From: a virus
Lineage: Duplodnaviria > Heunggongvirae > Uroviricota > Caudoviricetes
Virus record (IMG/VR): IMGVR_UViG_3300028832_000101
Span: 49,380-113,379 of that record
Strand: one strand, 5' to 3'
DNA length: 64,000 nucleotides
Positions 8,571 through 35,838 of this stretch are shown one piece after another. The position numbers were made by a program, and so were the translations under genes. Every line of letters starts with the position of its first letter. Within the stretch, counting starts at the first letter, position 1. The notes beneath the pieces are model-generated. The model made no database searches and was not told the DNA's origin. It saw only the letters and a list, made by a program, of their open reading frames with translations.

Positions 8571-8768
8571 ATGAAAGATAAAGAAAAAAAGAAAAAAATT
8601 AAATCAATAGCTCAACAAATTTCACAATTGGAAAATAAGTGTCGTATAGATTCGGTTAACCAACTTAAGTATATGGCAGAAATGCAACAATTAATTGAAA
8701 ATCTTTCATTAGAAGAGTTATTGGAGATTGATGAATATATAATTGAAAGCAAATGTTTGAAAAAATAA
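8571..8768 (+). CDS. hypothetical small protein
   Basis: ORF track, own promoter-like TATAAT upstream. Confidence 0.4.
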   Translation: MKDKEKKKKIKSIAQQISQLENKCRIDSVNQLKYMAEMQQLIENLSLEELLEIDEYIIESKCLKK

Positions 8769-8830
8769 AAATTTTTAGTTATAATATTCATATAAAATAA
8801 AATAAGAAAAAAGAAGAGGAGAAAAAGATT

Positions 8831-9097
8831 ATGTTAAAACCAAATAGTAAATTAGTTTATGATTATGTAAAAGCAAATGGAGCAAATAATATTACTGCAG
8901 CTGATATCGCTGAAGGAACTGGACTTCCAGTAAGAAGCGTTAATGGTATCGTTACATCTGCATTCCAAAGAAAAGGTTTAATGGAAAGAATTGCTGCTGA
9001 AGTTGAATTAGAAGATGGAACTCACAAAACAGTTAAATTTATTAAATTAACTGCTGAAGGTGAAGCATTCGATCCTGAAGCTGAAGACGCTGAATAA
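8831..9097 (+). CDS. hypothetical acidic small protein, possible winged-helix DNA binder
   Basis: ORF track; strong RBS aagaggagaaaaag. Confidence 0.4.
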   Translation: MLKPNSKLVYDYVKANGANNITAADIAEGTGLPVRSVNGIVTSAFQRKGLMERIAAEVELEDGTHKTVKFIKLTAEGEAFDPEAEDAE

Positions 9098-9117
9098 TTT
9101 TAAATAAACAGGAGAAG

Positions 9118-9150
9118 GAGTTGGGCATAGCTCAACTTCTTTTTAATTAG
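9118..9150 (+). terminator. intrinsic terminator hairpin agttgggcatagctcaact + T-run
   Basis: inverted repeat followed by tctttttaatt. Confidence 0.5.
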
Positions 9151-9159
9151 GAGAATATT

Positions 9160-10086: not shown

Positions 10087-10240
10087 ATTATATACCCTCG
10101 ATAGCCAGGGTAGGTAATTTTGACAGTAAAAAAATTTTTTGCTATAATAATAATAGAAATAATTAAATCATAAAGATAAATTAAATGAATTAAATTATTT
10201 TAAAAAGAAAAGAAAATATTTAGTAAAGGAGAAAAAGATT

Positions 10241-11191
10241 ATGAGAAAACCACAAAACACAGAAAGAGTAGAAGGATATATTTATCAACATGATTTAACA
10301 GTTAAACAAGTTCAAAATCAATCTAGTGATAATTTTGGTAAAGATTTTATCGCAGGTAATATTGAAGTTGCAACTGATGATGAATGCTTAAATGTTATTA
10401 AAGTTCATTTTACTTATGTAACTCCAACAAATAAATCTGGAGCAGAAAATAGAACTTATAGCGTTTTAAAGAAAATAATTGATGAAAATAAAACTATAAC
10501 TGCTGTTGGTAAAGAAAATGCTACAAAAGTTAGAATTGATACAGCTTTAGCATTAAATGATTTTTATAATCAAAATGATGAATTAGTATCAGCAAAAACT
10601 AATGAAGGTGGATTTGTTACAATTATTAATGAATTAGGAGAACCTAAAGAAAGAAATAGATTCACAGTTGATATGGTTATAACTGGAGTAACTCATGTAG
10701 ATGCTGACGCAGAAAAGAAAATTGACGAACATGCTTTAGTTAGAGGAGCAATCTTTAACTTTAGAAATGATTTATTACCTGTTGAATTTAAAGTAAAAAA
10801 TGCAGAAGGTATTAAATATTTTGAAGGATTAGGCGCAACTAATGCAGAACCTATCTATACTAAAGTTTGGGGAGATATAGTATCTGAAACTACTACTACA
10901 ACTCAAGAAGTTGAAAGTGCTTTTGGAGAAGCTGCAGTAAGAACTTATAGAAACACTTCTAAAGAATGGGTTATTACTGGAACTGCAAAAGTACCATATG
11001 ACTTTGGTGATGAAAGTATTTTAACTGCTGATGAATTACAAAAGGCTAGTGCTGATAGACAAGTATATTTAGCTGATATAAAGAAAAGAGCAGACGAATA
11101 TAAAGCAAGTAGAGCCGCAGGAACTACTACTACAACAACTAGTGAAACTGCTGCAACTACAGCTACTAAAACAGCCGGATTTAGTTTCTAA
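10241..11191 (+). CDS. hypothetical protein, possibly phage ssDNA-binding protein
   Basis: position between nuclease and Sak4-like ATPase; poly-Thr C-terminal tail; no diagnostic motif. Confidence 0.45.
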   Translation: MRKPQNTERVEGYIYQHDLTVKQVQNQSSDNFGKDFIAGNIEVATDDECLNVIKVHFTYVTPTNKSGAENRTYSVLKKIIDENKTITAVGKENATKVRIDTALALNDFYNQNDELVSAKTNEGGFVTIINELGEPKERNRFTVDMVITGVTHVDADAEKKIDEHALVRGAIFNFRNDLLPVEFKVKNAEGIKYFEGLGATNAEPIYTKVWGDIVSETTTTTQEVESAFGEAAVRTYRNTSKEWVITGTAKVPYDFGDESILTADELQKASADRQVYLADIKKRADEYKASRAAGTTTTTTSETAATTATKTAGFSF

Positions 11192-17371: not shown

Positions 17372-17644
17372 ATGAAAGAAAAAGAAGAAAAAGTATATGA
17401 CAATTATTATTGTGTTATAGATGGATATATAGATACTATTGTCGGTCCATACCCTAAAATGGTCTTCATCCCTGGAAGAGTACTCGCAATTGAGTATTGT
17501 GCTTTAAGTTGTTTATTATATGATTTTGAAACTTATTTAGAAGAACATGGATATGATGAACTATTAGCAAGATTAAAAGATTATAAAATGGATGCAGACG
17601 AAATGATTAAAGAAAGTGAGGCATATAATGATTTCGCTCAATAA
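17372..17644 (+). CDS. hypothetical protein
   Basis: ORF track. Confidence 0.45.
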   Translation: MKEKEEKVYDNYYCVIDGYIDTIVGPYPKMVFIPGRVLAIEYCALSCLLYDFETYLEEHGYDELLARLKDYKMDADEMIKESEAYNDFAQ

Positions 17645-19698: not shown

Positions 19699-22600
19699 AT
19701 GGGAAATAGATTTGAAGTGCACTCACATACATATTATAGCAACATCAGATTGTTAGACTCAATTAATCGTCCTAAAGATTTAATTAATAGAGCGATTGAG
19801 TTAGGTTTATCAGGTATTGCAATCACAGATCACGAGGCAATATGTTCTCACCCTGAGATAAACTTCTATCAAGATGAAATTAAAGAAGCACATCCTGATT
19901 TTAAAATAGCATTAGGAAATGAAATATATTTAACTGATAATAGAGAAAAAGGACAAAGATATTATCACTTTATTTTGATAGCAAAAAATAAAGAGGGACA
20001 TAGAGCATTAAGAGAATTATCCTCAAGAGCTTGGATGAATAGTTATTGGGATAGAGGTCTTGAAAGAGTTCCAACATTAAAAAGTGATTTAGAAGAAATA
20101 TTAAAAAAATATCCTAATTCATTAATAGGAACAACAGCATGTCTTGGTGGAGAATTATCAGTTAACACATTAGAGTTAATTAGATGTGAAACAACAGGAG
20201 ATGAAAATGGTGCGGCGATCGCCCATAATAATATAGTTAACTTCTTACTTTGGTGTAAGGAAGTGTTTGGTGATGGTAATTTTTATATTGAATGTGCACC
20301 AGGTGCCAGCCGCGATCAAATATTAGTTAACAAGAGATTTCCTGCTATTGCAAAAGCATTTGGTTTAAAAATGGTTGTTGGTTCAGATGCGCATTATCTT
20401 AAAAAAGAAGATAGATATGTTCACAAAGCATATTTAAACTCTAAAGGGGGAGAACGTGAAGTAGACGAGTTCTATGAATATGCATACCTACAAGATAATG
20501 ATGAAATTAAAACTAACTTATATGCATCTGAATTTAGTGATGATTTTATAGAACAAATGTTTAATAATAGTTATGAAATATATGAAAAGATAGAAAATTA
20601 TAGTTTAGCTCATGCACAAACTATTCCTAAGGTAGAAGTAGCTAATTATGAAAGAAAATTAGATACATCAATGAATAATTATCCTATCTTACAAGGAATG
20701 TTGAATGATGAAGATAAAGTAAATAGATATTGGGTAAATAAATGTTTAGAAAAATTAAAAGAAAAAGATATTTATAATGAAACATATTTAAGTAGACTTG
20801 AAGAAGAAGCAGATATAAAGCAAACAATTAGTGAAAAGTTAGGAACTAATATGTTTAGTTATCCTATAACTTTACAACATTATGTAGATTTATTCTGGGA
20901 ATGCGGCAGTATCGTAGGTGCTGGTCGTGGTTCAAGTTGTTCAGGTCTTAACCATTATTTATTAGGTATAACTCAACTAGACCCAATCCAATGGAATCTT
21001 CCATTCTGGAGATATTTAAATAAAGAGAGAGTTGAGTTAGGTGATATAGATTTGGATTTATGTCCAAGTAAACGTCCTAAAATTTTAAATGAAATTAAAA
21101 AAGAAAGAGGACAAAACTTTAATAAAGATATAGATGATTTAAGTAGAAAGAATTTAGGTTGTACTTTAATAGCAACATTTGGTACAGAGGGAACTCGTTC
21201 AACAATCTTAACCGCTTGCCGCGGATATAGAAGTGAAGATTTCCCAGATGGTATTGATGTTGATACTGCACAATATTTATCATCATTAATCCCAAGTGAA
21301 CGTGGTTTCTTATGGAGCTTAAGTGATGTTGTAAATGGAAATGAAGATAAAGATAGAAAGCCAATTAAATCATTTATAAATGAAGTTAATCAGTTCCCAG
21401 GATTATTAGATATAATGATGGGTATTGAAGGATTAGTTAATAAAAGAAGTTCACATGCATCAGGAGTAATCTTATTTGATGAAGATCCATATGAATTTGG
21501 TTCTTTTATGAGAACTCCAAAAGGTGAGGTTATCACAGCATATGATCTACATATGTGTGAAGCATGTGGAATGACAAAATATGACTTCTTAGTAACAGAA
21601 GTTCAAGATAAATTAGCAGAAGCAATTAGAATGTTGCAAGACTATGGAGAAATTGAAGACGATTTAACTCTAAGAGAGGTTTATGATAAATATTTTCATC
21701 CAAGTGTACTACCTATTGAAGAGGATAAATATTGGAAAGTTATTCAAGAAAATAGTATTTTAAATTTGTTTCAATTTGATAGTGATGTAGGTAGTCAAGC
21801 CGCAAAAAAGATTAAACCATCTAATATGATGGAGTTGGCAGATGCAAATGGTTTAATGAGATTAATGACCGCAGAAAAAGGTCAAGAGTCTCCAATGGAT
21901 AAATATATTAGATTTAAAAATAATATAGATTTATGGTATAAAGAAATGGACGGATATGGTCTTACAAAAGAAGAACAAAAAACTTTAGAGCCATATTTTA
22001 AAAGTTCACATGGTGTACCACCATCACAAGAGCAATTAATGAAAATGTTAATGGATGAAAATGTTTGTAACTTTAGTTTAAAAGATGCAAATGCCGCCCG
22101 TAAAATTGTTGGTAAAAAGCAAATGAGTAAAATCCCTGGATTAAAGGCGCAAGTATTAGAACAAGCTAAATCTCCAAACTTAGGTAGATATGTATGGACT
22201 TGCGGTATTGGTCCACAAATGGGTTATTCATTTAGTATTATTCATGCTCTTGCATATAGTTTCATTGGTTTTCAAACTGCATATATAGCAACTAGATGGA
22301 ATCCTATATATTGGAACACAGCATGTTTAGTTGTTAATAGCGGAAGTCTTGAAGAAGAAAGTGATTTTGAAGAAGATGAAGATGGATTTGTTGTTGAAAA
22401 GAAAGAAAAGACAACAGATTATAGTAAAATAGCAAAAGCATTAAGTGATATTATAAACAAAGGAATTAAAGTTAGTTTAGTTGATATAAATAAGTCTGAT
22501 TATAGTTTTGAACCTGATGTTGATAATAATGAAATATTATTTGGTATGAAAGCATTAAGTAATGTTGGAGGCCCTATAATAGAACAAATTAAAGCTGGTC

Positions 22601-23649
22601 GTCCATATGCGGGAATAGCTGACTTTATGGCAAAATGTCCATTAAATAAAAGTGCGATGATTAGTTTAATTAAAGGTGGTGCTTTTGATAAAGTAGATGA
22701 AAAATATGCGGTTGCCGCAGGTGTAGAAACAAGAATTTGGACTATGACATATTATTTATCTAAAGTATGTGATGCTAAGAAAAGATTAACTCTACAAAAC
22801 TTTAATGGTTTATTGCAACATGATTTAATCCCAGAAGAATTAGATTTTCAAAAAAGAACATTTAATTTTAATAAATATTTAAAAGCATCTCAAAAAGTTG
22901 GTAAATATTATGTATTTAATCAACCTTGTGAAGAATTTTATAATAAATATTTTGATATGGACCAACTAGAAGTAATAAATGGTTATACATGTATTCTTCA
23001 AACTAGATGGGATAAAATGTATCAAGATACAATGGGAGTCGCTAGAGACTACCTTCAAGAACATCAAGAAGAAATGTTAAAGAAATTTAACACAATGTTA
23101 TTTAAAGAATGTTGGGATAAATATGCTCAAGGAAATATCTCCGCATGGGAGATGGAAGCATTATGTTTCTACTATCATGAACATGAACTAGCACATGTAA
23201 ATAATTTAAAATATGGTTTAATAGATTTCTTTGAACTTCCACCTAATCCAGAAGTGGATACAATGTTCAAAAGAAATGGAAAAGAAATTCCTATATTTAA
23301 AACTTATAAAATAGTTGGAACAGTAATAAATAAAAATGATAATAAAAATAGTATAACATTATTAACTACAAATGGAGTAGTTCCTATTAAGTTCACAAAA
23401 GAATATTTTGCAATGTTCAATAGACAATTAAGTGAACTTGGAGAAGATGGAGTGAAACATGTTGTTGAAAAAGGTTGGTTTACAAGAGGAACGAAAGTAT
23501 TAGTAACTGGATTTAGAAGAGATGATACTTTCGTATCAAAAACTTATACAAAAACTTCAACACATCAATTATATAAAATTGAAGAAGTATATAATAATGG
23601 TGATATAAAATTAACTCATGAAAGAGGGAATGCGGCAGACCTTGGTTAG
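19699..23649 (+). CDS. DNA polymerase III alpha subunit (PHP domain + polymerase core), 1316 aa
   Basis: N-terminal PHP motif HSHTYYS...ITDHE; length and order typical of DnaE/PolC-family replicase. Confidence 0.85.
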   Translation: MGNRFEVHSHTYYSNIRLLDSINRPKDLINRAIELGLSGIAITDHEAICSHPEINFYQDEIKEAHPDFKIALGNEIYLTDNREKGQRYYHFILIAKNKEGHRALRELSSRAWMNSYWDRGLERVPTLKSDLEEILKKYPNSLIGTTACLGGELSVNTLELIRCETTGDENGAAIAHNNIVNFLLWCKEVFGDGNFYIECAPGASRDQILVNKRFPAIAKAFGLKMVVGSDAHYLKKEDRYVHKAYLNSKGGEREVDEFYEYAYLQDNDEIKTNLYASEFSDDFIEQMFNNSYEIYEKIENYSLAHAQTIPKVEVANYERKLDTSMNNYPILQGMLNDEDKVNRYWVNKCLEKLKEKDIYNETYLSRLEEEADIKQTISEKLGTNMFSYPITLQHYVDLFWECGSIVGAGRGSSCSGLNHYLLGITQLDPIQWNLPFWRYLNKERVELGDIDLDLCPSKRPKILNEIKKERGQNFNKDIDDLSRKNLGCTLIATFGTEGTRSTILTACRGYRSEDFPDGIDVDTAQYLSSLIPSERGFLWSLSDVVNGNEDKDRKPIKSFINEVNQFPGLLDIMMGIEGLVNKRSSHASGVILFDEDPYEFGSFMRTPKGEVITAYDLHMCEACGMTKYDFLVTEVQDKLAEAIRMLQDYGEIEDDLTLREVYDKYFHPSVLPIEEDKYWKVIQENSILNLFQFDSDVGSQAAKKIKPSNMMELADANGLMRLMTAEKGQESPMDKYIRFKNNIDLWYKEMDGYGLTKEEQKTLEPYFKSSHGVPPSQEQLMKMLMDENVCNFSLKDANAARKIVGKKQMSKIPGLKAQVLEQAKSPNLGRYVWTCGIGPQMGYSFSIIHALAYSFIGFQTAYIATRWNPIYWNTACLVVNSGSLEEESDFEEDEDGFVVEKKEKTTDYSKIAKALSDIINKGIKVSLVDINKSDYSFEPDVDNNEILFGMKALSNVGGPIIEQIKAGRPYAGIADFMAKCPLNKSAMISLIKGGAFDKVDEKYAVAAGVETRIWTMTYYLSKVCDAKKRLTLQNFNGLLQHDLIPEELDFQKRTFNFNKYLKASQKVGKYYVFNQPCEEFYNKYFDMDQLEVINGYTCILQTRWDKMYQDTMGVARDYLQEHQEEMLKKFNTMLFKECWDKYAQGNISAWEMEALCFYYHEHELAHVNNLKYGLIDFFELPPNPEVDTMFKRNGKEIPIFKTYKIVGTVINKNDNKNSITLLTTNGVVPIKFTKEYFAMFNRQLSELGEDGVKHVVEKGWFTRGTKVLVTGFRRDDTFVSKTYTKTSTHQLYKIEEVYNNGDIKLTHERGNAADLG

Positions 23650-23685
23650 AGAATTTTAAGCTGAGGTCTCCGCAAGGAGGTTTAT

Positions 23686-23916
23686 ATGAAAACAGTAATT
23701 AAACATGGCTATCAAATCAGAATGCATACAATATGTCCCTATTGCGGATGTGAGTTTACATACGAAAGTCAAGATATAATTGCAACACCTATAATTTCTA
23801 ATCATTCATCAACTAATTATGTATATTCGCCAGGTGCTTATGTTACCTGTCCAGATTGTGGAGCAATGCTTTACATATCAATTTATTTCCCTTATAAATA
23901 CCCACAAATAACTTGA
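23686..23916 (+). CDS. hypothetical zinc-ribbon protein; ends at TGA in standard code, would read through to TAA near 23949 under table 4
   Basis: CPYCGCEF...CPDCGAML; only early-region ORF terminated by TGA. Confidence 0.45.
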   Translation: MKTVIKHGYQIRMHTICPYCGCEFTYESQDIIATPIISNHSSTNYVYSPGAYVTCPDCGAMLYISIYFPYKYPQIT

Positions 23917-23932
23917 ACTACGAGGGCAATAT

Positions 23933-24496
23933 ATGACCAATCATTATAAGATTATAGCATTATTTGGACCAAGTGGAAGTGGCAAAGATACACTTGCAAA
24001 AATATTGGCAGAACGAAAAGATATAAATGAAATAGTTAGTTGTACTACTCGCCCTATGCGAGATTATGAAAAAGATGGAGTTGACTATCATTTTTTAACT
24101 AATGAAGATTTTGCAAAAAAAGTTTTAGACGGTAGTATGTTAGAAGCTACTAGCTTCCGTGACTGGTTTTATGGAACGCCTATTGATTCTCTAAAAGAAG
24201 ATAAAATAAATGTAGGAGTATTTAATATACAAGGTATTGATTGTTTATTAAAAGATAATAGATTAAAAATATACCCTATATATGTTGCTTGTGAAGATAA
24301 ACTTCGTTTGCAACGTGCTCTTGATAGAGAAGTAAATCCAGATTGTGAAGAAATTTGTCGCCGCTTTTTAACAGATTTACAAGATTTTGAAGATATACCT
24401 TTTGAGTATTATACTCATTATAATGGCGCAAAGGTCGATCCAAACTGGATTATTCCAGACCTTATAGAGCAAGATATCTTAAGCAAAGTAGATTAA
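23933..24496 (+). CDS. deoxynucleoside monophosphate kinase / guanylate-kinase-like P-loop kinase
   Basis: P-loop FGPSGSGKDTL. Confidence 0.6.
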   Translation: MTNHYKIIALFGPSGSGKDTLAKILAERKDINEIVSCTTRPMRDYEKDGVDYHFLTNEDFAKKVLDGSMLEATSFRDWFYGTPIDSLKEDKINVGVFNIQGIDCLLKDNRLKIYPIYVACEDKLRLQRALDREVNPDCEEICRRFLTDLQDFEDIPFEYYTHYNGAKVDPNWIIPDLIEQDILSKVD

Positions 24497-24577
24497 TCTA
24501 TATGAACTGGAATTTATAATAAGATAGAGGGTATTTTTAAACCACTCGAAATAATTTATATACTGAGGAGGTTGACT

Positions 24578-26908
24578 ATGAATGTCATTAAAAGAGATGG
24601 AAGAATTGTAGAATTCGATCCAACAAAAATTCATAACGCAATTTTAGCAGCTTTTAAGAGCGTTGATGGAGAAATTACTGATTATGCAATAGATAAAGCT
24701 GAAAATATTGCAAGCTATATTGAAGGATATTATTTAGATGTTGACGAAACACCTAGTATTGAAGATATCCAAGATTTAGTTGAAAAAGGATTAATGGCAA
24801 CAAAAAGAAAAGATGTTGCTAAAGAATATATCCTTTATAGAGAAGAAAGAAATAAAAAAAGACAATTTAATTCTTCTCTAATGAAAAATGTAAAAGAAAA
24901 AATTGAAGCATCAGATGTTCAAAATCAAAATGCAAATGTTGACGAGCATTCATTTGGTGGCCGCATGGGTGAAGCTAGAAGTGAAGTTATGAAAAACTAT
25001 GCATTAAATTATATTGTATCTGATATGGCAAGAGAAAATCATTTAAATAATGAAATATATATTCATGATTTAGATAGTTATGCAGTTGGTATGCACAATT
25101 GTTTAACTGTACCTTTTGACCATTTATTAGCAAATGGTTTTAACACTAGACAAACTGATGTTAGACCTGCGCGTTCTATTAATACTGCATTTCAATTAGT
25201 AGCAGTTATATTTCAATTACAATCATTACAACAATTTGGCGGCGTTAGTGCAAGTCATTTAGACTGGACTATGGTACCTTATGTTAGATTAAGTTTCATT
25301 AAACATTGGAAAGATGGTTTAAAATATTGTGAAGATGATGGTTGAGGTGGATTTGCTAAAGAGGATATGCCAGAAGGAGTTTGGGATAGATTATGCTCAT
25401 ACTATAAAAATAATGCTGATAGACAGGTTGTAATAGATAAAAATAATTGGTCTGATAAATATTTACAATCTTTAGGTATTGAAAATCCTTTCTTTAAAGA
25501 AAATCCGAGAGCCTATCGATATGCTATGGATATGACTGAAAAAGAACTAATGCAAGCTGTACAAGGAATGTACCACAATTTAAATACATTACAATCTAGA
25601 AGTGGAAATCAATTACCTTTTACTTCAATTAACTATGGTACTTGTACTTTACCTGAAGGTAGAATGGTTACAAAAGCATTATTAGAGGGTAGTATTGAAG
25701 GTGTTGGTAAAGTTAGAAAAACTCCAATATTCCCATGTGGTATATTCCAATGCATGAAAGGCGTTAATCGTGAACCTGGAGATCCTAACTATGATTTATT
25801 TCAATTAGCCTTAGAGTCAACAGCTCAAAGATTATACCCTAATTATGTTAATGTAGACTGGTCAGTAAATGCGGGTTATGATAGAAATGATCCTAAAACA
25901 TATGTATCTACAATGGGATGTAGAACTTATAATGGTGCAGATATAAATGCAGATGAAGGCGTTAATCCTCAAACTAAGGATGGCCGCGGAAATATATGCC
26001 CTGTTACAATTATTATGCCTACTATTGCAATGTTAGCAAAAGGTGATGATGAAATCGGTCAAGTAGATATTGAAAAATTTATGATGATGCTTGATGATAA
26101 AATTCATGAGGCTAAAGATATGCTAATTGAAAGATATAAATATATTATTAGCCAAAATCCTAACTCAGCTAAGTTTATGTATGAAAACAATTGTATGTTA
26201 GGTTATGACGGCAAGACAGTAGAAAGTGCTATGAAACATGGTACATTGGCTCTTGGTCAAATTGGTCTTGCAGAAACATTACAAATATTAATTGGTAAAG
26301 ACCATACAACACCTGAAGGTATGGAACTTGCTAAAAGAATTGAACAATTATTTAAAGATAGATGTGCTGAATTTAAAAAAGAATATAAATTAAATATAGG
26401 TGTATATTATACTCCTGCAGAAAATTTATGTTATACATCTATGAAGAAATTTAAAAATAGATATGGAGAAATTCCTAATGTAAGTGATAGAGATTACTTT
26501 ACTAATAGTATTCATGTTCCAGTATGGAAACAAATGAGCCCTTTTGAAAAAATTGATATTGAAAGTCAATTAACTGGATACAGCAATGCTGGATGTATTA
26601 CTTACATTGAATTAGATGGTGGAGTTAAACATAATCTAAAAGCATTAGAACAAATTGTTGATTATGCTATGGATAAAGATATTCCTTATTTTGCAGTTAA
26701 TATTCCAAATGATACTTGTTTAGATTGCGGATATACAGATGAATTTAATGATAAATGTCCTATATGTGGCAGCAGCCATATACAACAACTTAGACGCGTA
26801 ACAGGATACTTAACAGGAGATTATAAAACTGCATTTAATAAAGGTAAACAACAAGAAACAGAACAAAGAGTAAAACATTCTGACTCTTTAGAGGGATGGA
26901 ATGATTAG
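24578..26908 (+). CDS. nrdD: anaerobic ribonucleoside-triphosphate reductase (one in-frame TGA=Trp at 25346-25348)
   Basis: ATP-cone N-terminus; C-terminal CLDCGY...CPICGS zinc site and glycyl-radical RRVTGYLTG; the two track ORFs 24572-25345 and 25367-26908 are in one frame joined by TGA. Confidence 0.85.
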
Positions 26909-27392
26909 AATAGCAGGGATTAATGATAATGATGTTGTTAATGGAGAAGGCATCTGCGTAAGTGTATTCTTACAAGGATGTCCTTTCCATTGCCCTGGTT
27001 GTCATAATCCTGAAACTTGAAATTCAGAAGGCGGAAAAGCCTGGTATGAAGACGAATTAATTGAACATATTATAAAATTAATTGGTGCTAATAATATACA
27101 AAGAGGCTTAAGTATCTTAGGTGGAGAAACATTAGATACTGATGATAAAAGAGAATTTATAAAACAATTAATCTATAAAGTAAGAGATAAATATCCTACA
27201 ATAGTAATTGCATTATGAACAGGATATACTTTTGAAGAATTACAAAAAGATTTAGGAGTAAATTATATATTACATAATATAGATTATTTAATAGATGGTC
27301 CTTTCATATTGGCAGAACGAGATATAACTTTGAAATGGCGCGGCAGCCGCAATCAAAGAATTATAAATATGAAAGAATTAAGGAGGAAATAA
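26901..27392 (+). CDS. nrdG: anaerobic RNR activating enzyme (radical SAM), two in-frame TGA=Trp
   Basis: GCPFHCPGCHNPETW with W encoded by TGA at the universally conserved T-W position. Confidence 0.85.
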
Positions 27393-27394
27393 AT

Positions 27395-28345
27395 ATGAAT
27401 GAACCTATTGATATAGTGCTAACATATGTAGATAGTACAGATAAACAATGGCAAAAATCATTTAAACAAATGCAAAATAAAGAAGTAAGAAAAGGAATCT
27501 TAGATAAAAGTGATTGTCAAGCTTTTGGAGAAGATAGATTTAGAGATTGGAATACTTTAAAATATTGGTTCCGTGGAGTAGAACAAAATTGTCCATGAGT
27601 AAATAAAATATTTTTTATAGTTCAATCTGAAAGTCAAATTCCAGAATGGTTAGATACAACAAATCCAAAATTAAGAATCGTATATCATAAAGAATATATC
27701 CCTAGTAGACTATTACCTGTATTTAATAGTAGACCTATTGAATTATATACTTGTAAAATAAAAGATTTATCTAAAAATTATATTAGATGTAATGATGATT
27801 GTTATTTTATTAACCCTGTTGAAGAAGAAAGATTCTTTAGAAATAACAAACCTGTTTTACCAGACAATAAAAGAGAATTTAAATTTTTCAATGCTGAAGG
27901 TAAAGGAGCTCCATTCTGGGGTGCATTAAATAATAATATGACAATAGAACAAGAATATTTAAAAGGTAGAGATTATAATTATGGTATTGCTCATTTACAA
28001 ACTCCTTGTGATAAAGAGTTTGAATTAGAAATACTAAATAAATATTATGGAGATATATTAAAAAGAAATAGTTATAGTCATTTTAAAAATGAAAAACAAT
28101 ATAATGTATTTTTATATGATAATTTAGAAAGATTATGTGATAATGCTATAATTGATGAAAATGTATATGAAAATTGTAGTTATTTATTCTTAAATCCAGA
28201 GCTTGATTATAACGAAGTAGGTAAAAAAATATTTGTTTGTCTTAATGATACTGATAAAGCAAATGAAAATTTTGATTTAGTATATGAACAATTACATACT
28301 TTCTTTGAAGATAAATTCCCTAATAAATCTTCATATGAAAAATAA
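27395..28345 (+). CDS. putative sugar-phosphate/glycosyl transferase with Stealth CR1/CR2-like motifs (one in-frame TGA)
   Basis: LTYVDSTDKQWQ and CNDDCYFINPV resemble Stealth conserved regions. Confidence 0.45.
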
Positions 28346-28378
28346 GACTTATTTAATTTTAAATAAGTCTTTTTTATT
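28346..28378 (+). terminator. intrinsic terminator aagacttatttaa-ttttaaataagtctt + T-run
   Basis: 13 bp inverted repeat then tttttattt. Confidence 0.6.
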
Positions 28379-28399
28379 TTAAATGAAAAGAGATGAATA

Positions 28400-28639
28400 T
28401 ATGTATTCTTGGGAGATAGCTCAATTTTTAGCTGAGCATAATTATTGTATTGGCGGAGATGATTTACTTTTTATCACTGATGTAAAACAACATCCGCAAC
28501 TATGTCGTATTAAATATGACCCTTTTAACAATAAATATGAAATGTGAGATTATGAAGGTAATTACTTTTGTTTTTATGTTATTCCTTATGAAGAAGCATT
28601 AGAACAGGGTTTGGTTAAAAAGAAAACTTTGAAAAAATA
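28400..28639 (+). CDS. hypothetical 79 aa protein (one in-frame TGA)
   Basis: open only under table 4. Confidence 0.4.
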
Positions 28640-28690
28640 AAAAATATATGATATAATATTTATATATAAAAGGAAAGAAGGATAAAATAG

Positions 28691-29155
28691 ATGATAAGAC
28701 CAATTTTTAAATATCCAAAGGATAAAGATATATTAACTACACCAAGTGTAGAAGTAACAGAATTTACTGAAGAAATTAAACAAACTATTAAAGATTTAAT
28801 AGATACAGTCCAAGCAAATAATGGAGCTGGCATTTCCGCAATTCAAATAGGAAAGCCATATCGTATTTGTGTAATTAACTGGGGTGGAATTCATGTTTTA
28901 GTTAACCCAGTAATTACAAGATCGAGAGGTGTCCATGTATTGAAAGAAGGATGTTTATCTGTACCTGGACTATATATTGAAACTCCAAGAGCACAAAAGG
29001 TATGGGTCACTGCTCTAGATGAAAATGGACAAGAGTATGAATTAGCAGAAGGCGGAAATACTAGTTATATTATTCAACATGAGTTAGACCACTTTGAAGG
29101 AAAATGTAGTTTATTTGTTGCATATGATGCAATGATGTCACAAAAGGAGAATTAA
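28691..29155 (+). CDS. def: peptide deformylase
   Basis: GAGISAIQIG, EGCLSVPG, HELDHFEG motifs. Confidence 0.8.
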   Translation: MIRPIFKYPKDKDILTTPSVEVTEFTEEIKQTIKDLIDTVQANNGAGISAIQIGKPYRICVINWGGIHVLVNPVITRSRGVHVLKEGCLSVPGLYIETPRAQKVWVTALDENGQEYELAEGGNTSYIIQHELDHFEGKCSLFVAYDAMMSQKEN

Positions 29156-29156
29156 T

Positions 29157-29735
29157 ATGAATATAATATCTAAATTTTTTAAAACTAGACAACAAAGAAA
29201 AGCATTTAGAAAATTTCTTGATAAACATAAAAAGAATATTTTAAAAGCATATTATGAAATGCTTAATTGTCAAGACCTTGAGTGGATAATGCAAGATCCA
29301 GTTATGTTAGATATTTTATGGGAGAGAGTTCTTACTCATGATGACAGTAAATATGAAGAAGATGAATTTGAATGTTATAGAAAACATTATTTCCCAATAG
29401 ATAAAAAAGAATATATAGAAAATGAAAAAGAGTTTGAAGAAGTATGGTTTAGACATATTCATAATAATGACCATCATTGGCAAGCTAGAACTGATTGGGA
29501 AGACGAATATTTTGATATAAATACTGAGGCGGCATGTCTTGAAAATATAATTGACTGGCTTGCAGTTGGTTATGAATTAAATGACCGCCCAATTGATTAC
29601 TATGAAGCTCATAAAGATGAGATTGATTTACCACCTAAACAAATCCAATTTATAGAAAGATGTATTTATCAAGGAATTGATAAAGATTATATAGAAATGA
29701 GAGATAGTATATATGATGTCTGGAATCGTATATAA
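29157..29735 (+). CDS. hypothetical protein, possible HD-domain phosphohydrolase
   Basis: LTHDDSKYE and HIHNNDHHW His/Asp clusters. Confidence 0.4.
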   Translation: MNIISKFFKTRQQRKAFRKFLDKHKKNILKAYYEMLNCQDLEWIMQDPVMLDILWERVLTHDDSKYEEDEFECYRKHYFPIDKKEYIENEKEFEEVWFRHIHNNDHHWQARTDWEDEYFDINTEAACLENIIDWLAVGYELNDRPIDYYEAHKDEIDLPPKQIQFIERCIYQGIDKDYIEMRDSIYDVWNRI

Positions 29736-29810
29736 TTTATTAATGTTTCTATTTGGATTAATATTAGGATGGTTTCTCGGAGCTTTATCTGATGAATAGA
29801 GGTGAAATAA

Positions 29811-30215
29811 ATGAAGTTCTTTAAAAACAAAAAGAAAAAAGAAACAAAACAAATTGCAATGGGAACTTTATATGATTTAAATAAAAGTATTGTAGAAAAA
29901 AATATAGATGCTTTATCTGAAGAAGATATGCAAAATAAAAAGAATTTAATTATTAAATTTTTAGAAGATACTGATAATATTTATTATATGTTATTATGTA
30001 ATGATAGAAAAGATTATACAGTATTTCATCATTTAGATACTAATATAGAATGTTTACAAGATGTTTTAATTGATGAATGTTTACCTAACCGCGGTTATAC
30101 TAAATCAATTGAACTAACTAAAAATAATGATGCTATTGAAATATGGATCTCAATTGATGGAGATAGTTATTGTTACTATTTCTTCCCATATGATGAAGCT
30201 ATAATAGAATGTTAG
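29811..30215 (+). CDS. hypothetical protein
   Basis: ORF track. Confidence 0.45.
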   Translation: MKFFKNKKKKETKQIAMGTLYDLNKSIVEKNIDALSEEDMQNKKNLIIKFLEDTDNIYYMLLCNDRKDYTVFHHLDTNIECLQDVLIDECLPNRGYTKSIELTKNNDAIEIWISIDGDSYCYYFFPYDEAIIEC

Positions 30216-30225
30216 GAGGATTTAT

Positions 30226-30489
30226 ATGAATAGTTATATTATTATTAATTTAAAAAACTTTACTTTTGCTCATGAAATCTATGTATTTAATGAAGAAAAT
30301 GAAGTTCTTACTAAAACACAATGTTCTATGGGAAATCTTGCGGAAACAGTTGCTGAATATAGTAATTTATATAGAGCAAATAAAGTTAAAATTATGGGAA
30401 AGAATGCTTTCTCTAAAAAACTAGGTCAAGAGATAACTCAAACAAGTTTAGCTAAATATGAATTAAAAATAGATGTAGAATATATTTAG
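30226..30489 (+). CDS. hypothetical protein
   Basis: ORF track. Confidence 0.4.
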   Translation: MNSYIIINLKNFTFAHEIYVFNEENEVLTKTQCSMGNLAETVAEYSNLYRANKVKIMGKNAFSKKLGQEITQTSLAKYELKIDVEYI

Positions 30490-30499
30490 GAGGGATAAA

Positions 30500-30751
30500 A
30501 TGAAATATTTATTAGAAACTACTGAAAATTATAGAGTTGATAATGAAGCAGAAGCAAAAGAATTAATTGAAAAGGCTAAAAAAGGTGATAGTTATATTTT
30601 AAAAAAATATACTTCACAATATAAAGAAAGAAAACAAAAAGGCGAAGTAATAGATGCTTGGTATAGAGTTACATTAGTAAAAGTATTTACTGATGAAAAA
30701 GAACCTGATACACAAGTTGAAATTACTTATGATAATGGGAGTGCATTCTAA
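30500..30751 (+). CDS. hypothetical protein
   Basis: ORF track. Confidence 0.4.
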   Translation: MKYLLETTENYRVDNEAEAKELIEKAKKGDSYILKKYTSQYKERKQKGEVIDAWYRVTLVKVFTDEKEPDTQVEITYDNGSAF

Positions 30752-31239
30752 TGTTTGGGGAAATGTTTGTGAATGGCGTTAAAGTCAATCAGGGGCCTAC
30801 CATTCAAGGAATTAATTATACTAAACTAAGAGACGATGCACATGAACCAACTCAAGGTAGCGCGTTTGCCGCGGGTTATGATTTATATGCTGCTATTGAT
30901 GAAGAGGTTGCAATTCCTCCTCATCAAACAGTAAAAATTGGTACAGGTTTATCTTTTGAATTACCTGAATATACCTTTGGAGCAATCTTCGCTAGATCTG
31001 GGTTAGCCACAAAACAAGGCTTACGTCCTGCAAATTGTGTAGGAGTTTGTGATAGCGATTATCGTGGAGAATACATAGTTGCTATACATAATGATGGAGA
31101 TGTTGGACAATTTATCCAACCAGGAGATAGAATTGCTCAATTAGTCATTATGCCTTATATTCCTGTTACTTTTGTAGAAACTAAAAATTTAAGTGAAACA
31201 GAACGCGGCGATGGTGGTTTTGGTTCAACAGGAAAATAA
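30751..31239 (+). CDS. dut: dUTP diphosphatase
   Basis: AAGYDLYA, ARSGLATKQGL, RGDGGFGSTG motifs. Confidence 0.8.
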   Translation: MFGEMFVNGVKVNQGPTIQGINYTKLRDDAHEPTQGSAFAAGYDLYAAIDEEVAIPPHQTVKIGTGLSFELPEYTFGAIFARSGLATKQGLRPANCVGVCDSDYRGEYIVAIHNDGDVGQFIQPGDRIAQLVIMPYIPVTFVETKNLSETERGDGGFGSTGK

Positions 31240-31271
31240 TAAAAATTAGACGGAAAGGAAGGAATTAGGAG

Positions 31272-32735
31272 ATGGATTTAATTTTTATTGGAATTGGACT
31301 TGCAGTTATTGCAATATTACTTATTATACTTATTGGAGGATATGTTAAATGTCCACCTGATATGGTTTACATTATATCTGGTTTAAGAAAGAAACCTAGA
31401 GTTATTATTGGAAAAGCGACTATTAGAATACCTTTTTTAGAAAGAGTAGATAAATTAACATTAGAGTTAATTCAAATTGATGTTAAAACTCATAATGTTC
31501 CAACATCTGATTTCATTAATGTAGATGTTGACGCAGTTGCGAATGTTAGAATTCCAAATGACCCTGAGTTAATTCAAGTTGCCGCAAGACACTTCTTAAA
31601 TCAAAAATCAGACTATATCGCAAAAAATGTAAAAGAAGTACTTGAAGGAAATATGCGTGAAATCATTGGACAAATGAACTTAGTTGCTCTTGTTAATGAT
31701 AAACAATTATTCTCACAAAAGATACAAGAAAATGCAAAAGATGATATTAAAAATATCGGTCTTGAAATTGTTAACTTAAATGTACAAAACTGTACTGATG
31801 ACAATGATGCTATTGTTAATTTAGGTATTGACAATTTAGTTAAAATACAAAAGGCGGCTAAAATTGCAAAGGCTCAAGCTGAAAAAGAAATTAAAGTTGC
31901 GGAAGCCGCTGCTGATGAAGAAGGAGCTCGTGCTCGTGCAGAAGCAGATGCTAAAATAGCAGAACAACAAAAAGATTTACAAATTAAAAAAGCTGAATAT
32001 AAAATTGAGCAAGATAAAAAACAAGCGGATGCGGATGCTGCTTATGAAATTCAAAAGGCAGTTCAACAAAGAACTATTAATGAAAATGAAGTAGCCGCAG
32101 AAGTTGCTAAAACTGAAAAAACAACTGAATTAAAAGAAAAACAAGTTTCTTTAAGAGAAAAAGAACTTGAAGCTGAAATTAAGAAACAAGCTGATGCTGA
32201 AAGATATGCTGCGGAAATCCAAGCTGAAGTAGATAAAGTTCGTGCTGTAAAGGCAGCTGAAGCAGAAGCTCAAGCTAGAATCGCTCGTGCTGATGCAGAG
32301 AAAGAAGCTAACATTAAAGAAGCTGAAGGTATCCGTGCTAAATTACAAGCAGAAGCTGATGGTAAAAAAGCAATCTTACTAGCTGAAGCAGAGGGTGTTC
32401 GTGCTAAAGCACTTGCTGAAGCTGAAGGTATTGAAAAGAAAGCAGAAGCTCAAAAGAAAATGGGTGAAGCATCTATCGTTGAAATGATTATGACTGCTTT
32501 ACCACAAGTTGCAAAAGAAGTATCTGCTCCATTAGCTAATGTAGATAATATCACTATGTATGGTGATCAATCTACTGAGTTTATTGAAAACAATACACAA
32601 AAAATAGATAAAGTATTAAAAGTTGCTCAAGATAGTTTAGGACTAGATTTAAAGAGTCTTGTAGCAGGTTTTGCCGCAAATAAAGTTATACAAACAAATA
32701 AAGAAAAGAAAAATGAAAAAGACTTAGAAAATTAA
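31272..32735 (+). CDS. SPFH/band-7 (flotillin-like) membrane protein with long Ala/Glu/Lys-rich coiled coil
   Basis: N-terminal TM, SPFH core, EA-rich repeats. Confidence 0.7.
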   Translation: MDLIFIGIGLAVIAILLIILIGGYVKCPPDMVYIISGLRKKPRVIIGKATIRIPFLERVDKLTLELIQIDVKTHNVPTSDFINVDVDAVANVRIPNDPELIQVAARHFLNQKSDYIAKNVKEVLEGNMREIIGQMNLVALVNDKQLFSQKIQENAKDDIKNIGLEIVNLNVQNCTDDNDAIVNLGIDNLVKIQKAAKIAKAQAEKEIKVAEAAADEEGARARAEADAKIAEQQKDLQIKKAEYKIEQDKKQADADAAYEIQKAVQQRTINENEVAAEVAKTEKTTELKEKQVSLREKELEAEIKKQADAERYAAEIQAEVDKVRAVKAAEAEAQARIARADAEKEANIKEAEGIRAKLQAEADGKKAILLAEAEGVRAKALAEAEGIEKKAEAQKKMGEASIVEMIMTALPQVAKEVSAPLANVDNITMYGDQSTEFIENNTQKIDKVLKVAQDSLGLDLKSLVAGFAANKVIQTNKEKKNEKDLEN

Positions 32736-32750
32736 TCTAAGTCTTTTTTG
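32719..32750 (+). terminator. intrinsic terminator gacttag...ctaagtc + TTTTTT overlapping stop of SPFH gene
   Basis: inverted repeat and T-run. Confidence 0.55.
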
Positions 32751-32776
32751 ATGAAATAAAAAATTCAGAGTATAAT
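32748..32776 (+). promoter_or_regulatory. promoter TTGATG-N17-TATAAT
   Basis: ttgatg 32748-53, tataat 32771-76. Confidence 0.45.
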
Positions 32777-32812
32777 ATAGAAAAGAAGGATTATGGGTTA
32801 GGAGGTTTAAAT

Positions 32813-33472
32813 ATGAAAATATTAGTTTTAAGTTGTGATAAAAATGATGATACTTTTGAAGCATTTCATCATTGTATGGAAAAATATTATCCAGAACATC
32901 CAGAAATAATATATGCAACTGAAACAATAATTAACCCCTATTACAAAACAATTACTAAAAAATATCCTTTAAATTTATGAACTAAAAGAATAAGAGAAAC
33001 AGTTCAAGAAATTGAAGATGATAAAATATTATTAATGATAGATGATTGTTTTATTAGAGAACCTGTTGACACTCAAAGAATTGAATATTTAAATGGAGTT
33101 TTAAAAGGAAATATAGCAATGTTTAATTTTGAAAAATCATTTGATGCAAGTGATGAAGAAACAGATATTATAGGGATAAAGAAAAGAAAACACCCTTCTA
33201 TCTATGAAGTTAGTTTATTATGTGGTTTATGACAAAAACAAGCATTAATAGACATACTTCAAGATGATAGCGATCCATGGACGGTAGAAGGAAATCAAAA
33301 AACTCACGGCTATGATTTTTATATTAATAGCGGAGATTATATTATAAACTGGGGATATGAAACATGAAGACCTGCAGGTTTATTTAAAGGTTTATGGTGT
33401 AAAGAGGTTGTTGACTTTTTTAAAAAAGAAGGAGTTGAAATAGATTATGGAAAAAGAGGATTTGCTGATTAG
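32813..33472 (+). CDS. hypothetical protein related to C-terminal half of the Stealth-like gene (three in-frame TGA)
   Basis: MIDDCFIREPV echoes CNDDCYFINPV of 27395-28345; three standard-code fragments in one frame. Confidence 0.45.
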
Positions 33473-34043
33473 TATAATAACTCCTTATTATAATACTTTA
33501 AAACAAACAAAATCTTTGGCTAAAGTATTAGAACCACAATTAACAGAAGATATAGAATGAATTATAATAGATGATGGATGTCATGAAACTGAATTAGATA
33601 CTATAAAAGCAACAGTTATTCATTTAGAGAATAATAGTGGCGGAGGAAGCGTTCCAAGAAATGTAGGCCTAGATACCGCAAAAGGTAAATATATTTTATT
33701 TATAGATAGTGATGATATGATAAAAAGAGATTATATTGAAACAATAGTTAAGAAAATAAAAACTGAAGATTTTGACTATTGTTATTTTGGTTGAGAATCT
33801 CATGCTTTTCATATAATCATAACAGACCAACCGCCTGCATGAAATTGTAGTATTTGAAATTGTATATATAAGAGAGAATTAATAGGTGATATTAGATTTA
33901 ATCCCGATTTAAGAATTGGAGAAGACCATGAATTTAATAATAAAGTAAGACATGGTAAGTGCGCACATATCCCTAAAATTCTATATTATTATAGTGATAC
34001 TCCTAATTCTTTAATAAAGCGAGGTAGTAAAGATGTTTTATAA
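33447..34043 (+). CDS. family 2 glycosyltransferase (four in-frame TGA)
   Basis: LISIITPYYN...IIIDDGC...FIDSDD GT-A fold motifs. Confidence 0.7.
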
Positions 34044-35148
34044 TAATATTTATTATTTTTATTATCTTTCAGATATAGGTGGAACTGAAACCTTTTTATA
34101 TGAATTATCAAAAAAATATTGTAATTATGATTTAACCATTATATATAGATATGCAGACCCTAGACAATTGGAAAGATTAAGAAAATATGTAAGATGTGTA
34201 GAATTTGTAGATGGTATGGTTATTAGATGTAAAAATGCTTTCTTTAATTATGGAATAGATATTATTGATAATGTAGAAGCAACAGATTTTTATACTTTCG
34301 TTATCCATGCTGACTATGAAGATATGAAAAATAGAGGACAATTATCAAGTAAGATACCTGACCATCCTAAATTGAATAGATGGATCGCGGTAAGTAAGCG
34401 TGCAGCTCAAGGCTTCCATGCAGTAACAGGAAAAAAAGTAGAAGTATGTTATAATCCTTATGAAATTAGAAAGCCTAATAAAGTTTTAAATTTAATTTCC
34501 GCAACTAGATTATCAAAAGAAAAAGGTAAAGATAGAATGATTCAATTTGCAAAACTATTAGATAAAGCTGGTATTAAATATATATGAACCATCTTTACGA
34601 ATGATAAGAATGAAATTAAAGATAATCCAAATATTATATATATGAAACCTAGATTAGATATTTTAGATTATATTGCTAATGCAGATTTTCTAGTTCAGCT
34701 ATCTGATAATGAAGGTTTTTGTTATAGTGTAGTTGAATCATTATGCGCGGGAGTCCCTGTTATAGTTACTCCATGCCCTGTATTTGATGAAATAGGTTTA
34801 ATTGATGGAGAAAATTGTTGGAAAGTTCCTTTTGATGTTACAGGATTTGATCCACGTAAATTGATAGATAAACCATTAAAATTTAAATACACTCCACCTG
34901 CAGATTCTTGGGATAAATATTTAAATAATGCACCTAGCACATGGCAAGAAGAATTACATACTAAATATAAAGTAATGGCTACTAGTGCTTATAAAGATAA
35001 TCATATTTCAGATAGCCAGTTACGTAAAACTCCAGAGCCTGGAGACACATGGTGGGTTACTCCAGAAAGATTAAGAATCTTGCTAGGAGAAAATTCTAAA
35101 AGAATAAAATTTGTAAAAGTAGTTGAGAAAGTCGTTTCAGAAGAATAA
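34033..35148 (+). CDS. GT-B fold glycosyltransferase (GT4/GT1-like), one in-frame TGA joins track ORFs 34033-34587 and 34642-35148
   Basis: SDNEGFCYSVVESLCAGVPVI motif. Confidence 0.7.
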
Positions 35149-35220
35149 TCAACTACTTTTTTCTTTTGCGCGTCTTGAAAATTTTTGTTATAATGTAAGT
35201 AAGAGAAGGAGATGACTCAA

Positions 35221-35718
35221 ATGATATTACTATCTTTAGATTTATCAACAAAGAGCTCTGGATGAGCAATCTTTGAAGATGGTTTTTTAAAAGATTCAGG
35301 ATGTATAGCATCTTCATCTACTGATTTACTAAAAAGAATTAATATAATGATAGATGGGATTAAAACAATAGTAGAAAAATATAATCCTAATAAAGTAATT
35401 GCAGAAGAAGTTAGACCTGAAAATGGTATGCAAAATTTAAAAACACATAGAGCGTTAATGTGGTTACAAGGCGGAATTGCTTTAATGCTATATGATTATA
35501 ATAAAAAATTAGAAATGGAATTAATATATCCTAGTTCATGGCGTGCGGCAATTGGTATTAAAACTGGTCGCGGCATTAAAAGAACTACTTTAAAAGAAAA
35601 AGATATTCAATTTGTAAAAGAAAATTATAATTTAGATGTTAATGATGATGAGGCGGATGCTATTTGTATTGGTTATTCACAATGTCATGATATAGAAACA
35701 GAAATAAATTGGGACTAA
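35221..35718 (+). CDS. RuvC-like Holliday junction resolvase (one in-frame TGA)
   Basis: LSLDLSTKSSGWAIF and DEADAICIGY catalytic motifs. Confidence 0.6.
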
Positions 35719-35801: not shown

Positions 35802-35838
35802 AAAGCACACTATTAAAAGTGTGCTTTATTTTTTTTTA
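35802..35838. terminator. bidirectional intrinsic terminator agcacact-attaaa-agtgtgct flanked by A-run and 12 nt T-run, at the convergence point of the two modules
   Basis: perfect inverted repeat; stop of minus-strand gene 35836-38 abuts it. Confidence 0.65.

Follow-up and report, generated by a model that had tools for sequence, protein, structure and literature searches.

A TGA beside the TGA-free replication module of a tryptophan-recoded phage is probably a derived sense codon of a small zinc-ribbon gene

The stretch analysed here (the window) comprises 64,000 nt of a virus of the Caudoviricetes, positions 49,380 to 113,379 of IMG/VR record IMGVR_UViG_3300028832_000101. Directly after the DnaE gene it carries a small zinc-ribbon gene, called ZR in the following, whose reading frame meets a TGA at 23914-23916. 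The question arises whether ZR ends there or whether this TGA is read as tryptophan, like other TGAs of the same phage. A preliminary description of the DNA had offered both possibilities, a genuine stop read by host release factor 2 (RF2) early in infection or a sense codon; of the two, the sense codon is favoured by TGG and the same downstream TAA in a sister lineage and by a tRNA(UCA), while RF2 may terminate there early in infection. The TGA is probably a derived and effectively synonymous TGG-to-TGA change, read as Trp when tRNA(UCA) is present and otherwise acting as a harmless stop.

The phage is of the virulent type, with a genome of approximately 136-137 kb, and stems from gut or rumen; judged from its codon use and alignments, it is TGA-to-tryptophan recoded (code 4) with its replication genes exempt. 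The window was read with translation table 4, TGG and in-frame TGA codons were counted per gene block and the blocks were compared by Fisher tests. They are laid out as follows:

358-23649, plus strand: TGA-free replication module; 20 genes, 7416 codons, 74 TGG, 0 in-frame TGA, every stop TAA or TAG; functions RNase H, GyrB, GyrA, NAD-ligase, GIY-YIG, AAA_24, DnaB, primase, RecJ, Dda-like helicase and DnaE
19699-23649, plus strand: DnaE gene, the end of the TGA-free module
24578-35718, plus strand: downstream block including nrdD and nrdG; 15 genes, 3615 codons, 38 TGG, 14 TGA
27335-35718, plus strand: genes after nrdG, with sparse TGA (Stealth CR2, peptide deformylase, DUF5662, SPFH/flotillin, GT2, GT1, RuvC-like gene)
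35802-35827, between the convergent plus and minus blocks: bidirectional terminator-like hairpin with a 10-bp stem and T-runs on both strands
35836-63472, minus strand: heavily recoded late block (tail, fibre, baseplate-like); 22 genes, 8848 codons, 66 TGG, 66 TGA

The share of TGA among the Trp codons was 0/74 in the replication module, 14/52 in the downstream block and 66/132 in the late block (0%, 27% and 50%). This partition is far beyond chance (early versus downstream, p = 1.3e-6; early versus late, p = 7e-17; downstream versus late, p = 0.005), and off-frame TGAs are plentiful within 358-23649 despite the lack of in-frame ones. The sign of the GC skew flips at the hairpin. Translation with table 4 joined open reading frames (ORFs) that are otherwise fragmented, so that nrdD, nrdG, the Stealth gene, GT2, GT1 and the tail proteins each became a single ORF.

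Alignments show that TGA stands for Trp in this phage. The TGA at 27018 in nrdG aligns with the Trp of the CHNRDTW motif in the pyruvate formate-lyase activating enzyme 3c8f (CHNxxTW). With the window as reference, codons were then mapped in some 90 related loci (designated by L numbers) that came from IMG/VR and from further assemblies. Among the 340 in-frame TGAs of these relatives, 263 align with Trp codons of the window (202 TGG, 61 TGA), and the rest include 16 at window Tyr, 15 at window Phe and only 2 at Gly codons. The TGA at 27018 is TGG in 35 relatives and TGA in 14, that at 27216 is TGG in 34, TGA in nine and a Tyr codon in five. Also within the window, TGA and TGG swap at the same positions of tandem paralogs at 53684-56123 (GGTxE / GGTWV; YIxNRTA / YMWKRTA). 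These three paralogs, on the minus strand, have a common N-terminus, His-rich repeats (HSHT/HTHS) and a C-terminal YMWKRTA, and the local GC content of their region is 37.6%, against ~28% elsewhere.

The base following all 81 in-frame TGAs of the window is A in 38, G in 30, T in eight and C in five cases; after TGG (n = 180) it is G in 59, A in 56, T in 49 and C in 16. T at this +4 position is avoided after sense TGA (8/81 versus 49/180, p = 0.002). A +4 U strengthens termination in bacteria (PMC5289835), and its avoidance at sense TGAs is expected if selection minimises termination by RF2. One further in-frame TGA, at 17604, was considered as a sense codon and rejected, since the true start of the gene concerned, which encodes the Dda-like helicase, follows only at ATG 17628, preceded by GTGAGG.

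The elements around the disputed codon are:

23686-23913, plus strand: ZR gene body, codons 1-76; ATG at 23686, 7 nt after AGGAGG
23914-23916, plus strand: disputed TGA, ZR codon 77; +4 base A, the commonest context of the sense TGAs of the window
23917-23949, plus strand: ZR extension TTRAIYDQSL (ten codons) and TAA (23947-23949), crossing the Shine-Dalgarno sequence and start of the kinase gene
23933-24496, plus strand: guanylate-kinase-like nucleotide kinase, 187 aa (Pfam PF00625, 2.4e-18; PHROG 1815); 2 TGG, 0 TGA

ZR starts 36 nt after DnaE with no terminator between the two genes. It encodes 76 aa up to the TGA and 87 aa under table 4, which lengthens the ORF by 33 nt (36 nt including the TGA) and, as already noted in the preliminary description, makes it overlap the start of the kinase gene; the overlap with the kinase ATG at 23933 amounts to 17 nt. 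The kinase Shine-Dalgarno sequence, GAGGG, is at 23922-23926. The statement that ZR is the only early gene ending in TGA was also borne out: four plus-strand ORFs of at least 30 aa in 1-24500 end in TGA, three of them are off-frame shadows within larger genes, and ZR is the only plausible gene, none of the other 20 early genes ending in this way. Since the ZR region including the TGA is 100% identical across five assemblies, the TGA is fixed and not a sequencing error; the phage is present in the samples JGI 3300037512, ERZ27256849, SRR11060108, SRR8543131 and SRR10393136.

ZR is predicted to be a small four-Cys zinc-ribbon protein with two CxxC knuckles (MKxIIKHG…CPxCGCEF…CPECG). Its core comprises residues 1-65 with Cys17, Cys20, Cys22, Cys55 and Cys58, and C17, C20, C55, P56 and C58 are invariant in both alignments made (32 and 49 sequences). 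An AlphaFold2 (AF2) model computed from 49 homologs shows four strands (13-16, 23-26, 51-54 and 61-64), with a predicted local distance difference test (pLDDT) score >90 around the knuckles, and predicts residues 67-87 as coil with pLDDT ~54-62. In the family as collected by an exhaustive HMMER search the Cys core is constant, the tails range from 0 to 60 aa and many members have only 60-72 aa. Matches of ZR to Pfam zinc ribbons were all below threshold and there was no PHROG match; a Pfam scan of longer homologs gave no hint of a function, and a protein search of the phage collection with ZR gave no meaningful match. A small hairpin, CUCC-GCAA-GGAG, lies over the ZR Shine-Dalgarno sequence at 23667-23680 and is conserved in the nearest relatives; it was rejected as a structured element, the fold of the region not being significant (z = -1.48 versus shuffles).

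The preliminary description had proposed related phages as a test of the extension, and the nearest lineage indeed continues in the same frame to the same TAA, with TGG at codon 77. The closest ZR protein homolog (P0001; 88% identical, 87 aa) has this TGG and this TAA in 8/8 short contigs. These contigs (L003-L010) and the 15.7-kb contig L105 are the nine loci of the sister lineage; L105, with ~84% nucleotide identity to window 13.8-30.6 kb, likewise has TGG at codon 77 and shares the TAA. Since L105 is itself recoded, with three in-frame TGAs in nrdG including the CHNPETW site, the difference between TGG and TGA stands between two recoded sister lineages. In 7/7 related loci checked (L058, L030, L025, L024 and L026, which have unrelated tails, and L105 and L003) ZR reaches at least 11 nt into the kinase gene and ends there at a TAA or TAG, and against these seven loci only the window has an earlier ZR stop of any kind. 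In L027 and L029 in-frame TGA lies within the ZR core itself, between its Cys pairs, and must be read through; one of the L029 TGAs is TGG in L027, and the L027 contig carries a tRNA(UCA). Nucleotide differences between the window and L105 affect 4/19 positions in the non-overlapping tail, 13/228 in the body (p = 0.03) and 0/17 in the kinase overlap, demonstrating that the non-overlapping tail diverges faster than the ZR body.

Neither tRNA nor other RNA genes were found in the window (ARAGORN; Rfam at gathering scores), and none were found around DnaE and kinase in ~95 loci. tRNAs turned up after anchoring on gyrB and then on the first gene of the window. Locus L247 (from the contig JGI 3300037512 Ga0400026_0000021; the 136-137-kb genome is also available as ENA ERZ27256849 k141_4501037) is 100% identical to window 1-10654, and this same genome has an array of 17-18 tRNAs on the minus strand, 4.2-9.6 kb left of window position 1, with:

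L247 2426-2521, minus strand: tRNA(UCA), ~7.1 kb left of window position 1
L247 2922-2995, minus strand: normal tRNA-Trp(CCA), same array

Therefore, the means of TGA decoding is present in this phage. The tRNA(UCA) was found in 17 IMG/VR contigs including this phage, among which are several recoded relatives of the DnaE set; besides L247, copies lie at L144 176-271, at L174 4318-4413 and in L222-L239. It is ~96 nt long and has five arms; A1-U72 is invariant and G73 is kept, both of which are identity elements of bacterial tRNA-Trp, and CCA is encoded in most copies. The variable region forms an extra arm of 4-6 bp with the 7-nt loop CUCCAAA, the same as the anticodon loop of the neighbouring tRNA-Trp(CCA). 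Covariation is seen in the outer pairs of this arm (GC, CG, GU, AU); the search pattern fixed the loop and the two closing pairs, whose invariance is, therefore, not evidence. From its sequence, the extra arm may act as a decoy Trp anticodon for tryptophanyl-tRNA synthetase. No description of a tRNA(UCA) with an anticodon-like variable arm was found in the literature, the coverage of which was incomplete.

Other relatives add to the picture of decoding. The 136-kb relative L230 / L040 (IMGVR_UViG_3300032038_000012) carries the five-arm tRNA(UCA), yet none of the 67 Trp positions that could be aligned around DnaE (43 early and 24 downstream) is TGA; the suppressor may thus be present here with little or no recoding in the DnaE region. 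The distant relative L219 has a tRNA with the anticodon CUA (amber suppressor; 9274-9349, plus strand) and L149 a tmRNA inside its tRNA array (1504-1912, minus strand), so further translation tricks exist in this phage family. The tRNA arrays also contain strong partial matches to OLE RNA (RF01071) with 100-119 bits, against a gathering score of 50, over model positions ~280-595 of 616 (L247 4075-4280, L144 3397-3668 and L174 61-265, all minus strand). As far as the matches go, the element resembles a shortened OLE-like RNA carried by a phage; no report of OLE RNA in phages was found in the literature, again with incomplete coverage.

How could a TGA become fixed next to a TGA-free module? We propose that a G-to-A change turned TGG into TGA in the disordered C-terminal tail of ZR. 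With the suppressor tRNA present, Trp would be inserted at codon 77 and the ancestral 87-aa ZR, ending at TAA 23947-23949, would be made; where RF2 wins, for example very early in infection, a 76-aa ZR with the whole zinc ribbon would result. As the tail is disordered, termination at the TGA would cost little, and because both products keep the zinc ribbon, the change would be near neutral and could be fixed beside the TGA-free module. We infer the direction from TGG to TGA from the common overlap architecture and the AT mutation bias, and likewise which ZR product would predominate when. The preliminary description had placed the first sense TGA of the plus strand in nrdD; this is probably wrong by one gene pair, since with 23914 as a sense codon the first recoded codon of the plus strand would lie 1.4 kb upstream of the nrdD TGA.

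Several observations weigh against a derived sense codon. No outgroup polarises TGG versus TGA. The preliminary description had looked to homologs in standard-code phages for a decision; the nearest lineage, which continues past the codon, is itself recoded, and the ZR tails of more distant relatives could not be aligned. ZR comes straight after the TGA-free DnaE without an intervening terminator; should the module lack TGA because of being translated ahead of suppression, ZR would stop at its TGA. The tail of the 87-aa form is unconserved and partly fixed by the kinase start region, and TGAs near the C-terminus in standard-code relatives are plain real stops.

The likeliest alternative is a genuine stop in which the TGA is a functional RF2 terminator of a 76-aa ZR and the 87-aa form of the sister lineage a mere variant. 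We regard this as unlikely. It is in line with the position of ZR next to the TGA-free DnaE, with a core that is done by ~residue 65 in a family with many members of 60-72 aa, with the predicted disorder of the tail and with the ordinary 16-nt spacer, including the kinase Shine-Dalgarno sequence, that the TGA leaves; standard-code relatives also have TGA stops followed shortly by TAA or TAG. However, a gene ordinarily terminated by TGA is not what was found, since the nearest orthologs have TGG and TGA ends none of the other early genes. Furthermore, with a genome-encoded tRNA(UCA) a TGA stop would leak once the tRNA is expressed, and the TAA shared with the sister lineage, the ends of ZR within the kinase gene in all seven related loci and the sense TGA within the ZR core of relatives all argue for translation beyond codon 77.

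Could the codon have been selected for its double meaning, with an early stop and late read-through at 23914 giving two ZR isoforms or an altered coupling to the kinase? If so, RF2 would release a 76-aa ZR at the kinase Shine-Dalgarno sequence before tRNA(UCA) accumulates, later reading as Trp would give the 87-aa isoform with ribosomes passing through the kinase start, and one codon would shift both the ZR isoform and the coupling to the nucleotide kinase as the code of the cell switches. In its favour, the TGA lies 5 nt before the kinase Shine-Dalgarno sequence and the alternative stop 12 nt after the kinase ATG, and the TGA is fixed in five assemblies. Two other genes, outside the window, have comparable TGAs, the L105 homolog of window 17372-17644 three codons before its stop and L247 6250-6831 ten codons before its stop. 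Still, a selected double meaning appears quite improbable: the TGA is unconserved, with TGG in the sister lineage and different tails in other relatives, the ZR tail evolves faster than the body, the site has no standout promoter or terminator and the edge of recoding varies between relatives. A stimulatory RNA structure 3' of the TGA is absent, the fold of 23900-23990 giving z = 0.10 versus shuffles. Programmed read-through, as in the Qβ A1 protein, uses a UGA and an in-frame extension to obtain two products of different length, one short and one long, from a single ORF; there, stop and extension are conserved and functional. Here, by contrast, neither is conserved, the sister has TGG, the extension arises as a by-product of the kinase start and a dedicated suppressor tRNA decodes the codon.

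Both of the comparable genes adjoin the TGA-free module. L105 3492-3764, the homolog of window 17372-17644, ends in …DDwIE*, and the window has Phe at the position of its TGA. L247 6250-6831 (minus strand), a leftward gene from the genome of the window itself, is called TGA-terminated in JGI, with a TAA ten codons on. A clustering of early-gene TGAs at C-termini (8.5% versus 0.1% within three codons of the stop) was dropped as support, since the enrichment is confounded by true TGA stops in standard-code relatives and, therefore, unusable.

The next in-frame TGA of the plus strand lies in nrdD, followed by those in nrdG:

24578-26908, plus strand: nrdD, anaerobic ribonucleotide reductase, 776 aa; one in-frame TGA, 25343-25345
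25335-25509, plus strand: lineage-specific ~37-aa insertion in a hypervariable nrdD loop, holding the nrdD TGA; blastn homology breaks at 25334-25510
26901-27392, plus strand: nrdG activase; TGAs 27018-27020 and 27216-27218 at conserved Trp positions

The in-frame TGA of nrdD had been described before; it is confirmed, at 25343-25345, one codon earlier than the reported 25346-25348. The frame is continuous, the ATP-cone, NRDD and Gly_radical domains run on across the TGA, and nrdD is single and uninterrupted in all relatives. The insertion that holds the TGA is missing from L105 and L003, 43 related loci have a gap at the TGA codon, and L075 has CECDDW with Trp at the equivalent spot. The nrdD TGA would thus be likewise derived, having arisen within a new insertion of a variable surface loop. 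A split of nrdD without read-through into two polypeptides, 24578-25345 and 25367-26908, as in the public gene calls of 255 and 513 aa, might be entertained because the ATG at 25367, 21 nt past the TGA, has AAAGAGGAT in front and because nrdD of phage TR-TP2 is split too, albeit elsewhere in the gene, but it is very improbable given the continuous frame, the one unbroken loop in every relative, the Trp in L075, the TGA proven to be Trp in the adjoining nrdG and a GAGG only 2 nt from the ATG, compared to 6-7 nt at other genes. Going from DnaE onwards, the window and the sister lineage first share a TGA in nrdG, as L105 has TGA at the 27018 site, too. The two edge TGAs, in ZR and nrdD, are specific to the lineage of the window, and from the alignments both appear to lie where termination or substitution costs least and does little harm, although two cases amount to a hint and do not make a rule.

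The preliminary description had also taken the site as the mark of a switch in the expression programme. This found no support. Promoter-like matches in 17-37 kb were at chance level (131 versus 129 expected from shuffles), and no operon boundaries were drawn for this reason. The spacers from DnaE to nrdG contain neither a top-scoring promoter-like site nor a terminator-like site, the only strong terminator found being the bidirectional hairpin at 35802-35827. TGA use climbs stepwise along the blocks with no sharp line, and the edge lies elsewhere in other lineages: past DnaE, TGA first appears in nrdG in L105 and in the kinase gene in L025 (ALwGGGGCGKD). At aligned early Trp codons TGA was found in 0/40 in L030, 8/41 in L058, 11/42 in L026 and 17/44 in L052; the last three have TGA in replication genes, with six in the DnaE ORF of L052, and the shares at later Trp codons of these lineages were 17/25 in L058, 10/23 in L026 and 16/22 in L052. 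Farther relatives (53-68% identity) have no TGA at Trp positions, from which it follows that the family spans standard-code and recoded members. On the left side of the replication module, in the same genome, the fourth leftward gene has three in-frame TGAs. We conclude that the boundary of recoding is a lineage-specific snapshot and not a regulatory landmark.

The host is probably a standard-code member of the Bacillota. Related contigs were binned mostly as Bacilli or Erysipelotrichaceae metagenome-assembled genomes and one as 'Tenericutes', and the nearest cultured relatives infect Thomasclavelia ramosa; both are hints at the host only. A host that natively uses code 4, as in Mollicutes, with a TGA-free module recently acquired from a standard-code phage, would agree with the closeness of Erysipelotrichales to Mollicutes, with the 'Tenericutes' bin and with the many TGAs in replication genes of some relatives (17/44 in L052), yet there is hardly any likelihood in it: 0/74 Trp codons are TGA in 7416 codons at 28% GC, which indicates strong selection against TGA, the early-below-late gradient repeats in the independent lineages L058, L026 and L052, the TGA share is merely 50% even in late genes, the phage brings its own tRNA(UCA) beside tRNA-Trp(CCA), and Borges et al. 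predict standard-code Firmicutes/Bacteroidetes hosts (bioRxiv 10.1101/2021.08.26.457843).

Phages that read TGA as Trp have been described from gut by Borges et al. (bioRxiv 10.1101/2021.08.26.457843; Nat Microbiol 2022), including ~127-kb 'Agate' genomes from cattle, pig and tortoise. According to the same work, recoded clades have standard-code close relatives, TGA is lost as a stop before reassignment and a suppressor tRNA is detectable in just 35% of code-4 genomes. The present phage fits this description in every feature compared: it is a low-GC phage of ~136 kb from gut or rumen metagenomes, its TGA codons align with Trp and accumulate in structural genes, the replication machinery keeping to the standard code, TGA is lost as a stop, a suppressor tRNA is present, its relatives are both standard-code and recoded, and the GC skew has two oppositely oriented arms. 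The likeness to Agate is one of size, sources, code and gene partition, taken from the description in the preprint, the terminase lying outside the window. The partition is thus already described and the published picture of recoded phages is unchanged by this case. New are the edge at codon level, a TGG/TGA pair in a gene beside the replication module, and its shifting between close relatives, as well as the five-arm shape of tRNA(UCA), the more unusual by-product, from outside the window. Compared with its sister, the phage gained two TGAs beside the TGA-free module, which offers a codon-level view of the spread from stop to sense; in other relatives TGA is already inside the replication genes.

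TAG-recoded crAss-like and Lak phages (code 15) are alike in that early genes are compatible with the host code and late genes depend on a suppressor tRNA supplied by the phage, and for them a switch of code over time was proposed; they differ in the reassignment of TAG to Gln, in Bacteroidota hosts and in unrelated replication genes, which here are DnaE, GyrAB and NAD-ligase. Phages of Mycoplasma, Spiroplasma and code-25 hosts also use in-frame TGA for an amino acid, but do so throughout (~90% of genes in code-25 phages), whereas the phage analysed here has 20 consecutive genes without TGA and its own tRNA(UCA). A DNA search of the phage collection gave just two weak matches, both in nrdD. 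The nearest GenBank phages are the Thomasclavelia phages TR-TP1 and TR-TP2 (PQ571309, PQ571310), with nrdD 79-80% identical over ~400 nt. Like the window, they have a plus arm for replication and nucleotide metabolism ending in a resolvase, followed by a structural arm on the minus strand; unlike in the window, their genes were annotated with the standard code as continuous frames and nrdD and DnaE are interrupted by HNH genes. ARAGORN found no tRNAs in the 82 kb examined of them (19.6-101 kb), and an outward walk with the TR-TP2 terminase yielded TR-TP2-like contigs only. For annotation, table 4 should be used, with ZR at 23686-23949 (87 aa) and nrdD and nrdG as one gene each, which public calls split.

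A few other genes of the window deserve mention. A Stealth CR2/CR4 gene of the capsular-polysaccharide phosphotransferase family (27375-28384) is inserted after nrdG and absent from L105. Glycosyltransferase genes are found at 33447-34043 (GT2) and 34033-35148 (GT1), and ORF 52176-53255 in the late block may encode another glycosyltransferase. The peptide deformylase gene (28691-29155; PF01327, 1.2e-34) contains no TGA; with it, a phage that rewires decoding also carries an auxiliary gene related to translation. At the left end, an AT-rich non-coding stretch of 357 nt (1-357) separates the leftward unit of small genes and tRNAs from the rightward replication genes, the first of which (358-654) encodes a Cys-rich protein matching PHROG 1257 ('ribosome associated inhibitor A; zinc finger domain', 1.5e-7).

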